A DNA stretch of 61,530 nt from Catajapyx aquilonaris (Eukaryota): assembly GCA_000934665.2 (NCBI GenBank), contig KZ538571.1:1-61530 (forward strand). Reading direction: 5' to 3'. Shown here piece after piece: positions 9,877 to 12,284 of this stretch. Each line of letters starts with the position of its first letter. Within the stretch, counting starts at the first letter, position 1. Made by a program: the position numbers and the translations under genes. The notes below the pieces were generated by a model. It saw only the letters and a program-made list of their open reading frames with translations. It did no database searches and was not told where the DNA came from.

Positions 9877-10675
9877 CCGCTTAAAACCAAACGCTCATTT
9901 TGCATCAAGTCAACACTTTACAAAGAGCGTGCATGGATAAAATGGGAAAGGGGGGTTTAAATGAGAGGGGAAAAATATGTGGGGAGCCCGTAATTTATTA
10001 CTCGTCATTAATTCCATGCAGAGCCTGTGCAAGAGAGAGAAAATGAAAAAAAAAACTCATCTTTTTCCCCCTTGTTGTTTGTTTATCTGGCTACTTGTAG
10101 GCTAGTGTTTCTTGTTAACCTGATTTATGGACTTTGAAAAAAATCAATATCATGTACTGTACTTTATAAACAATGTGGAAGTGACTTAATATTGATCTAC
10201 TGTAGGTTTCAGGGATGAAAGTTTGTCAGGAACAGAGTCGACTCATTGCACCTGTTATAGGAAGTCAAACTGTAATCGACTCGAAGCAAAGCCGCTTTTG
10301 AATAAACCGTTAATTATGAACATTCCATATTATCCAGAAAAATTACTTCACCTTCCTACGATGGTTGCAAGTGGTTCGATCCTTGGTCCCATTTTTTTGG
10401 AAGGCTAGCAAATCTGTAATCGTCGCCTGCTGTGCACGTGATAAGGTTTCGCATTGTATTTTTCTTAAAAACCACCTCCGCTTTTCATTTCCCAAGACGC
10501 TGAGGATGTGCAAGGGAAGTCGTCATGGGAAAGGAAAACCCACCAGCAAATCCCTACCCCAACCCCCCCTTGAAAGGAAATTGCAAATGAATCCGGTGTC
10601 ATCTGGCATTGATTTTATTTAACTCACCAGAACAAATCTCGCATTTTATTGTTTATCATTACCTCCGACTTCTCT

Positions 10676-12284
10676 CTACTTTGCGTCTTTGCTCTGTGTC
10701 GACGACTTGGATTCCCTCAGGGAGGCAGTGCGACGCCTTCGCCGGAGAGCCAGGATCTTGTCCTTCTTCTCCTTCTGCCGTTGGGCCAACAGCTTTGCAT
10801 AGTCGGCTGCATCCTCCTTGCGCTTCAGTGCACGCTTGTGCTTCACCGTGCGCAGATGACGCTTGCGCTGGAACAAGACAGTAGCAATTTAGCCGCAAGT
10901 CAATTGAGAACAGACAAATGTCAACGGCTGGACCAACTCGCTGCCTACAAGAGCAGCAACGATAGCGATCCTGCAGTTATTAATCTCCACAGCATAAACG
11001 CCAACCAGGCCATGCAAGCACCTGGTTGGAGCTGGACTGTGGCACGTAGCAATGCGCAAGAAACATCAGTTACCTGCAGAACCCTGGGCGTGATGAGTCG
11101 CTGGATCTTGGGCGACTTGTACCTCTGCTTCTTTCCCTCCTTCTTGGGCAGGGGACGCTTCATGACAAAGAGACGCACGTCATCCTCCTTGGTCAGGTTG
11201 AACAGGCGCCGGATCTTGGAAGCTCGCTTGGGCCCCAGGCGTCGCGGGATGGTGGTGTCCGTCAGCCCAGGGATGTCCGTCTCCCCCTTCCGCACAATAA
11301 TCAGCGACAGCACGCTCAGGTTACTGTCGACGATGCATCCGCGCACAGACTTCCTCTTGCGCTCCCCATCCCGACGGGGCCTGTAGCAAGAATGCCCCTT
11401 GGACATCAACAACCGGACACGACCTGCCAAGAAAAAAAACCCAGAATCTCATCAAATCGCATGCCCACTAATTACGCATCCACCCTCCATTAATTAAGCA
11501 GCAATGTCATCAATCCCCGGCACCTCATCCCACCAGGATTCGACCGCCGACAACCGACATTTTAATCTCCACAACGTAAACGCCAACCGGGCAACAACAT
11601 ACACCCACTTGGAGCTGGGTTGTGGCCTACTATCAACCACCACTAAACAATCATCCGGCTAATTACTAACTTATCAACCGTTAAGTAGCTAAAATTTCAC
11701 ATACTGTTATTTTAACACATTTAATTTATCTACAAGTTTAAGCTATTATTTGTCGCTATTGAACGCATCGTTTAGCTGTTATTCAGCCGTCATGCAGCTA
11801 CATGAGTCACTGACTGTTAATATGAATGATTAGTTGTTAATGAAAAGGAGGCTGACCGCTTGTGAGGACCCCTTGCTTCATGGGGAAGCCTTGCTTGTCG
11901 TTCCCTCCGGTGAGGCGAAGGAGGTAGCCCTTCCACTCGTCCCCCAGCGGGTCGGCCTCCAGCTCGGCCCCGATCCTCTTCTCGTAGAACATCCGCAGCT
12001 TGTGGTCATCGTTGATCTCGAACAGCTTCTGGCAGCCCGTCGCCGGGAAGGCCACGTTCAACTATATGCAGTGGGAGGGGAAAGGGAAGAAGACCATGAG
12101 TGAGGGGGGGCATGCGGGCCATCGGAATCTGGGTCCATCCGGGGGGAGGGTCTGGCCCAGGGGTGCACCCGTGTGGATGGGGTTGTGCAGGGTGGAACGG
12201 AGCATGGTTCGAGGAGGGGTAAGTCCGTGATTGGAATCGTGGGAAGAGCAAGAGGGGAAATGGAAAAGGGACTCTCACCTTCAT
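10676..12284 (-). CDS. RPS6: 40S ribosomal protein S6 (eS6)
   Basis: Exons (minus) 12284-12279 (ATGAAG), 12061-11857, 11423-11074, 10867-10676 (TAG). Translation [18 protein letters not shown]...[16 protein letters not shown]...[18 protein letters not shown]...[18 protein letters not shown]...[15 protein letters not shown], including the S6K phosphorylation tail. Confidence 0.98.
10916..11043 (-). ncRNA. Box H/ACA snoRNA copy A in RPS6 intron 3 (snR37/SNORA10-like 5' guide)
   Basis: Minus strand reads hairpin 1 (CCACAG/CUGUGG lower stem, CCAACCAGG/CCUGGUUGG upper stem), H box AGAUUA, hairpin 2, then ACAUUU. Pocket strands UCCAGCU and CGUUU; the 3' pocket strand starts 14 nt before the H box. 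Confidence 0.85.
11502..11626 (-). ncRNA. Box H/ACA snoRNA copy B in RPS6 intron 2 (snR37/SNORA10-like 5' guide)
   Basis: Same architecture: hairpin 1 (CCACAAC/GUUGUGG), pocket ACCCAGCU / CGUUU, H box AGAUUA, a different hairpin 2, then ACAUUG. The 5' half is homologous to copy A with a compensatory G-C to A-U stem change. Confidence 0.85.

Follow-up and report, generated by a model that had tools for sequence, protein, structure and literature searches.

We describe a stretch of 61,530 nucleotides (nt) from Catajapyx aquilonaris (contig KZ538571.1 of GenBank assembly GCA_000934665.2, referred to in full as the window), in which RPS6, the gene for ribosomal protein eS6, carries two candidate box H/ACA small nucleolar RNAs (snoRNAs) in its introns. 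The two elements, copy A (10916..11043, 128 nt) and copy B (11502..11626, 125 nt), lie on the minus strand, as do the gene and all of the parts of gene and copies given below. Judged from their sequence and predicted folds, they are probably intron-encoded H/ACA snoRNAs of an RPS6-intron family, which would serve as redundant guides for helix 90 of large-subunit (LSU) ribosomal RNA (rRNA) and would have lost the second guide pocket of their ancestors.

The host gene and its two intronic elements

The RPS6 coding region (10676..12284) is recognized by an open spliced frame, by Pfam and by an intron-less contig. Its four exons (12284-12279, 12061-11857, 11423-11074 and 10867-10676) join into a stop-free frame of 250 amino acids, with Pfam Ribosomal_S6e matches in exon 2 (1.3e-25) and exon 3 (1.2e-21). 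Intron 1 spans 12278-12062; intron 2 (11424..11856, 433 nt, after codon ~71) is the host of copy B and intron 3 (10868..11073, 206 nt, after codon ~187) that of copy A. A contig from run X5, for which the kind of run is unrecorded, lacks precisely the stretches 11424-11856 (433 nt) and 10868-11073 (206 nt), each of which has GT..AG ends when read on the minus strand; at 12063 the contig has a loose end, beyond which it follows the letters of exon 1. The joints and this continuation together indicate that all three introns are removed as read. No such exon joints are found in the DNA run X1, and the X5 contig is most simply a transcript. Both copies are in sense orientation to RPS6 and inside the contig-confirmed introns. 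Copy B is separated from the ends of its intron by 230 nt (5' splice site) and 78 nt (3' end), copy A by 30 nt and 48 nt, respectively.

Each copy has the layout hairpin-AGAUUA-hairpin-ACA-3 nt, as a preliminary description of this DNA had proposed for the sense strand of introns 2 and 3; the coordinates agree with this, and RNAfold gives two hairpins for each copy (hairpin, hinge, hairpin, tail). The 5' hairpin consists in both cases of a lower stem of 7 base pairs (bp), an internal-loop pocket and an upper stem of 9-10 bp. In copy A, the lower stem P1 is CCACAGU/GCUGUGG and the upper stem P2 is CCAACCAGG/CCUGGUUGG; in copy B, P1 is CCACAAC/GUUGUGG and P2 is CCAAGUGGGU/GCCCGGUUGG. The pocket strands of copy A are CCAGCU on the 5' side (11030..11035) and CGUUUAU on the 3' side (10994..11000), followed by box H AGAUUA (10981..10986), the 3' hairpin (10922..10979, rod-like in the minimum-energy fold) and the ACA box (10919..10921, then UUU). 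The same order is found in copy B, with CCAGCU at 11613..11618, CGUUUAC at 11576..11582, box H AGAUUA at 11563..11568, the 3' hairpin at 11508..11559 (rod-like, no internal loop >2 nt) and the ACA box at 11505..11507 (then UUG). The pocket strands CCAGCU and CGUUU are thus shared, and the distance from the start of the 3' strand to box H is 14 nt in A as well as in B, again as previously described. The ACA follows the lower 3' stem directly in each copy; the RNA 3' ends are predicted only. A guide pocket of the H/ACA type, in which a bipartite antisense leaves 'U N' unpaired 14-16 nt from the box, is present in the 5' hairpins and absent from the 3' hairpins in their minimum-energy folds.

Copies A and B are paralogues, as judged by their sequences. 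Comparison of intron 2 with intron 3 returns a single local alignment, covering the 5' hairpin and box H, with a score of 59; dinucleotide shuffles give 18.4 +/- 2.3 with a maximum of 31, and 0/500 reach the observed score. Between the stems of A and B, G-C in P1 is replaced by A-U and A-U in P2 by G-C, both partners being changed in each case; two further changes affect a single partner and leave the pairing intact, and one pair is broken (C-G to G.G). Both the homology of these hairpins and the compensation in their stems are therefore borne out. So is the dissimilarity of the 3' hairpins, for which the observed score between the 3' halves of A and B is reached by 45/500 shuffles and, in a second test, by 307/1000. 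Within the window, A and B are the sole occurrences of the motif CAGCTCCA-N(10-40)-TGGCGTTT, and 0/100 shuffles contain any match.

The 5' pocket can be fitted by H/ACA geometry to the LSU motif GAACG-U-G-AGCUGG. CGUUU pairs with GAACG (5 bp, including one G-U) and CCAGCU pairs with AGCUGG, on the 3' side of the target U (6 bp), for a total of 11 bp; 'UG' stays free and the predicted target U sits 14 nt from box H. For this pairing, which was done manually, the motif was taken from a human 28S text and from a yeast 25S probe. The earlier proposal that the 5' pockets suit the helix-90 uridine addressed by yeast snR37 agrees with this arrangement. A further statement, that ACCCAGCU of copy B is fully complementary to the LSU, stands in part: its CCAGCU and CGUUU pair around the motif U, but its 'AC' is paired in P1, so that the free antisense is CCAGCU plus CGUUU, the same as in copy A.

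Helix 90 adjoins the peptidyl-transferase centre. In line with the preliminary description, we take the U in AACG-U-GAGC to be number 2944 (yeast) or 4491 (human). Counted by hand on the human 28S text, the distance from the second U of GCGUUCAUAGCGAC to the U in AACGUGAGC, farther 3', is 101 nt. This matches the difference 4491-4390 and agrees with numbering the motif U as 4491. According to a 2026 preprint, the 5' hairpin of yeast snR37 pairs with helix 90 and guides 25S U2944, where the signal is lost in snr37-delta; the human equivalent is given there as U4521 and predicted for SNORA10. A study (Mol Biol Evol 2019) assigns 18S-210 and 28S-4491 to SNORA10, and describes SNORA63 as a conserved guide for 28S-4491 that also addresses 28S-4390. 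Taken together, the pocket strands suggest that both copies most likely direct the same conserved helix-90 LSU pseudouridine (yeast 25S psi2944, human 28S psi4491/4521).

Relatives in metagenomic RPS6 genes

Metagenome contigs were scanned with a pattern that combined the pocket strands common to A and B with their spacing and ANANNA; it yielded five loci (L001-L005). Two of these, L001 and L003 from one metagenome, are RPS6 genes with 60-81% identity per exon, and the pattern is matched in their intron after codon ~72, a position that is also occupied by copy B and is thus shared by 3/3 genomes. The idea of RPS6 as a new, one-off host does not survive this comparison, given that the family recurs, at this intron position, in two metagenomic RPS6 genes. 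The remaining loci, L002 and L004 (an identical stretch) and L005, have neither RPS6 nor a model match at E up to 10; they were taken as chance matches for this reason and dropped.

A covariance model, R1, was built from three metagenomic elements only, with A and B excluded, which makes its application to the window a test independent of the two copies. Over all 61,530 bases and both strands, R1 singles out just the two copies, A with 41.8 bits (E ~1e-7) and B with 27.7 bits (E ~2e-4); these E-values are rough owing to a shortened calibration. A third match at 17959-17831 (10.9 bits, E 1.6) has no ACA and looks like chance. Additional family copies are found in the metagenomic loci: L001:1607-1744 (+) in RPS6 intron 1, a second copy in the next RPS6 intron of L003, and two full-length copies at L003:1272-1137 and 923-788 (-), in introns of the gene downstream of RPS6. 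Within RPS6, the family thus occupies introns 1 and 2 in L001, introns 2 and 3 in L003, and intron 2 and the last intron in the window. It is a multi-copy family, spreading between neighbouring introns and genes.

When five members are aligned by MAFFT, 92.3% of the cells in the stems are paired and 8/13 pairs change on both sides, although some of the covariation that P1 shows when the window copies are compared with the relatives hinges on a one-base choice of register. The covariation score is reached by 0/500 shuffles, and sliding the partners against each other cuts the pairing to 18-38%. A model-fitted alignment of eight members gives 95.8% paired, a value biased towards the model. The strands of the 5' pocket, CCAGCUCC and GGCGUUUA, are invariant in 8/8 members from the three genomes. 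A comparison of RPS6 introns across relatives, suggested at the outset as a check, hence comes out in favour of the snoRNA assignment, with 5' pocket strands kept and stems covarying.

The alternative that A and B are not snoRNAs at all, but conserved intronic hairpins with another role (e.g. control of RPS6 splicing) or products of chance, is in our view extremely improbable. It gains some ground from the lack of an Rfam family at gathering score. It would have to account, however, for a complete H/ACA grammar occurring twice, for a two-part antisense, invariant among the members, that fits a known pseudouridylation site with the canonical spacing of 14 nt, for stems that covary across three genomes and for a combined pocket motif that is not expected by chance. 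The L003 copies in the introns of another gene also argue against a cis role specific to RPS6.

A different possibility is that there is a single functional copy; the second one, most likely B, would be a duplicate in decay, which no longer forms a stable snoRNA-protein particle (snoRNP). Copy B scores lower than copy A with R1 (27.7 vs 41.8 bits) and with the Rfam family ceN36-1 discussed below (12 vs 28 bits), its P2 contains the G.G mismatch, its ACA is paired up when the whole element is folded at minimum energy and its upper 3' stem is very short. Yet both pocket strands, box H, the ACA and the 14-nt spacing are unchanged in B, and its intron position is the one conserved in 3/3 genomes. 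In addition, the stems of A and B differ by two compensatory and two pairing-keeping changes, a signature of selection on the fold. We hold the decay of copy B to be distinctly unlikely.

The 5' hairpins are identical at 49/59 positions between A and B, at 44-47 of 54-59 between A and the relatives and at 42-45 of 51-60 between B and the relatives; these values are too alike for the order of duplication to be read, including whether A and B split in this lineage. Copy B is at the conserved intron position; copy A is nearer to the relatives by sequence.

The last RPS6 intron of the two metagenomic loci, which corresponds in position to window intron 3, contains a different H/ACA-like element (L001:2803-2936 (+) and L003:2112-1980 (-)). 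The two examples share the strands CAGGCAGCU / AGUGUUCA and AGUGUACC and align with a score of 34, compared with 14.9 +/- 2.3 for shuffles, of which 0/1000 reach that value. A blastn-short search of the window with this second type returns chance words only; the corresponding intron is occupied by copy A.

The 3' hairpins and a second pocket

In 6/6 metagenomic members, the 3' hairpin has an open pocket formed by UCGCUAUA on the 5' side and CACCU on the 3' side, the latter 15 nt before the ACA. This conserved pair of strands is found in neither A nor B. The minimum-energy folds differ accordingly: the 3' hairpins of the six relatives contain internal loops of 4-9 nt per side, whereas those of A and B form uninterrupted stems of much lower energy, in which loops do not exceed 3 nt. 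At the place where the relatives have UCGCUAUA, copy A keeps AUCGCUAU, a remnant of 7-8 nt, and copy B retains neither of the 3' pocket strands recognisably; 97/1000 shuffles score as high as the 3' half of B against the relatives' 3' profile. Against the second type of element described above, the 3' halves of A and B show nothing above shuffles.

The likely target of the relatives' 3' pocket can be read from its strands. Their UCGCUAU is complementary to AUAGCGA, which directly follows 'UC' in the helix-89 loop text GCGUUCAUAGCGAC, and with the second U of that text as the target, this 3' arm forms 7 bp. At the place of the relatives' 5' arm, ACCUU, the Rfam consensus of SNORA63 has ACGCUUGG, the perfect complement; this consensus aligns with the L001 3' hairpin (CUAUACC ... 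GG.AC..UU.GUU.CA.ACAU) with 17.5 bits and E 0.67. From these complementarities, the 3' pocket of the relatives probably aims at the helix-89 loop U (human 4390), and the family would then work like SNORA63. For the 3' hairpin of copy A, a canonical fit to the helix-89 site was tried and fails, leaving six target nt unpaired.

We also observe a piece of sense sequence of this loop, the presumed target of the family's ancestral 3' pocket, in intron 2 upstream of copy B: GCGUUCAAUAGCGAC at window 11766-11752 (-) is the LSU helix-89 loop text (GCGUUCAUAGCGAC) with one extra A. It may be a chance occurrence.

Two histories of the 3' hairpins have to be weighed. The preliminary description saw in the pair a module swap, or modular guide evolution, in which each copy kept its helix-90 guide and acquired a new, functional second guide by exchange or fast divergence, so that the copies would address different extra sites. 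The 3' hairpins of A and B are indeed unrelated to each other, both have a well-paired 3' stem and a correctly placed ACA, and by hand analysis each has strands that could open as a pocket 14-17 nt from the ACA. There is also a precedent (Mol Biol Evol 2019): SNORA10 has a diverged paralogue with another target, SNORA64, with one guide shared and one diverged. On the other side stand the absence of any internal loop >3 nt in the 3' hairpins of A and B, compared with 4-9 nt in the six relatives, and the ancestral AUCGCUAU, still present at its ancestral place in copy A, which speaks for decay in place rather than a swap. With relatives that keep the second pocket, a copy A that has only a remnant of it, a copy B that has nothing of it and 3' hairpins that fold pocket-less in both, a module swap is neither needed nor demonstrated; we rate new functional guides in the 3' hairpins as unlikely. 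The data are better explained by decay of the second guide than by the gain of two new ones, and under this model the drift of the 3' hairpins, with the 5' hairpins staying fixed, would follow from the decay itself.

Known snoRNAs and the place of the two copies

Among curated families, ceN36-1 (RF01627) is the best match and the only H/ACA family in Rfam to match copy A (28.0 bits, E 0.0015-0.021), copy B (12.0 bits), L001 (21.3 bits) and one L003 copy (24.7 bits). It is an experimentally cloned H/ACA snoRNA of nematodes, with the same 5' pocket strands (CagCUCC ... GGCGuuu) in the same stems, two hairpins and a length of ~130 nt; it also shares with the metagenomic relatives the CACCU placed 15 nt before the ACA. 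The similarity does not extend to the 3' hairpins of A and B, which fail to align with it. C. elegans has two members, CeN36-1 and CeN36-2, listed with one probe, and the ceN36 texts consulted name neither host gene nor target.

SNORA63 (RF00092), whose host gene is EIF4A2, resembles the family in its sites, 28S-4491 and 28S-4390 being the two that the relatives apparently address. A and B share the 4491-type guide; they differ from SNORA63 in having no 4390-type pocket and in their host gene. At E up to 10, SNORA63 matches neither A nor B, and the L001 score of 17.5 bits compares with a gathering value of 90. SNORA10, hosted in RPS2, and snR37 have the helix-90 target uridine in common with A and B. 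The search proposed earlier for these two families gives no match to A or B at E up to 10 (Rfam 15, searched with stretches of 146-2001 nt; the presence of both in this library is unconfirmed), and ceN36-1 and, via the relatives, SNORA63 turn out to be nearest instead. SNORA10 has no detectable similarity to A and B in sequence or by covariance model.

The X5 contig and the Rfam scan give two further observations around the gene. The spliced X5 contig is 2856 nt long, of which RPS6 takes up contig positions 63-837 only; the remainder runs past the RPS6 3' end (window 10650 and beyond, on the low-coordinate side) and might stem from read-through, from a neighbouring transcript or from a chimeric assembly. 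In the 3' region of RPS6, at window 10590-10670 (-), there is a weak match to the box C/D snoRNA Z266 (17.8 bits vs a gathering value of 43, E 7.6), which is at chance level.

The yeast snoRNA snR37 offers another way of looking at the 3' hairpins. Its 3' hairpin is described as having no pseudouridylation pocket, as in A and B, and as recruiting dedicated proteins and scaffolding assembly around the peptidyl-transferase centre. By analogy, the pocket-less 3' hairpins of A and B may be specialised non-guide modules rather than decayed leftovers, so that the paralogues would pair one helix-90 anchor with two different protein- or rRNA-binding modules. If true, this would amount to a division of labour in ribosome assembly and not to simple redundancy. 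We consider such specialisation very unlikely. In other respects snR37 differs from A and B, in its 386 nt, its extra branches and its location in an independent yeast gene, and has no detectable similarity to them.

The arrangement itself is familiar. Intron-encoded snoRNAs in ribosomal-protein genes are textbook knowledge, as are paralogues in neighbouring introns. In vertebrates, cis-duplication of intronic snoRNAs is described as a main route of snoRNA family growth, and the presence of A and B as paralogues in different introns of one host does not differ from this in principle. Half of the H/ACA snoRNAs of yeast use one hairpin only, as stated in the 2026 preprint. In the literature covered, which is incomplete and so no proof that the case is unreported, no paper was found on a snoRNA in an RPS6 intron.

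We thus return to A and B as redundant helix-90 guides with a lost second pocket. Following established snoRNA biology, each RNA would be freed from its RPS6 intron after splicing, cut back to a core of hairpin-H-hairpin-ACA and joined by the proteins dyskerin/Cbf5, Nop10, Nhp2 and Gar1. The open 5' pocket of each copy would then pair on either side of 'UG' in the helix-90 motif, and both would redundantly guide pseudouridylation of the same U. The ancestral family would have had two guides, for helix 90 and for the helix-89 loop U (human 4390), as in vertebrate SNORA63; an intragenic duplication would have been followed by loss of the second pocket in both copies, and the 3' hairpins of A and B most likely serve as a module for ACA-side assembly and stability only.

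Several points weigh against this interpretation. The spliced X5 contig shows mRNA only, and the RNAs of A and B are themselves sequence-based predictions. The complementarity to helix 90 rests on a universally conserved motif, as read from human and yeast, rather than on the rRNA of this organism. Copy B has its ACA box paired in the whole-element fold and a mismatch in P2, as already mentioned. As regards the 3' hairpins, the remnant in copy A is not significant against the relatives' profile (230/1000 shuffles score as high). The missing pocket is a minimum-energy prediction for hairpins with 54% G+C, compared with ~38% in the relatives, and real pockets are sometimes predicted closed. The 5' arm of the relatives' pocket (ACCUU) pairs with helix 89 only via a bulged or mismatched C, and of the five elements searched with a limit of E up to 10, just one was matched by SNORA63 (E 0.67). 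Finally, the whole window has no Rfam match at gathering thresholds, and all of the ceN36-1 scores are below the gathering value of 48.

As gene predictions, A and B are well supported, and their kind of arrangement is already known. They add two H/ACA snoRNA genes to the annotation of this genome, in an ordinary arrangement that had not yet been described here, and are linked to a family that lies below the recognition thresholds of Rfam. The family would represent a helix-90 pseudouridine guide kept in RPS6 introns in at least three genomes and duplicated into different introns in each. In this species, a two-guide snoRNA would have been reduced to a single guide in both copies, a small case of snoRNA turnover that follows known rules.

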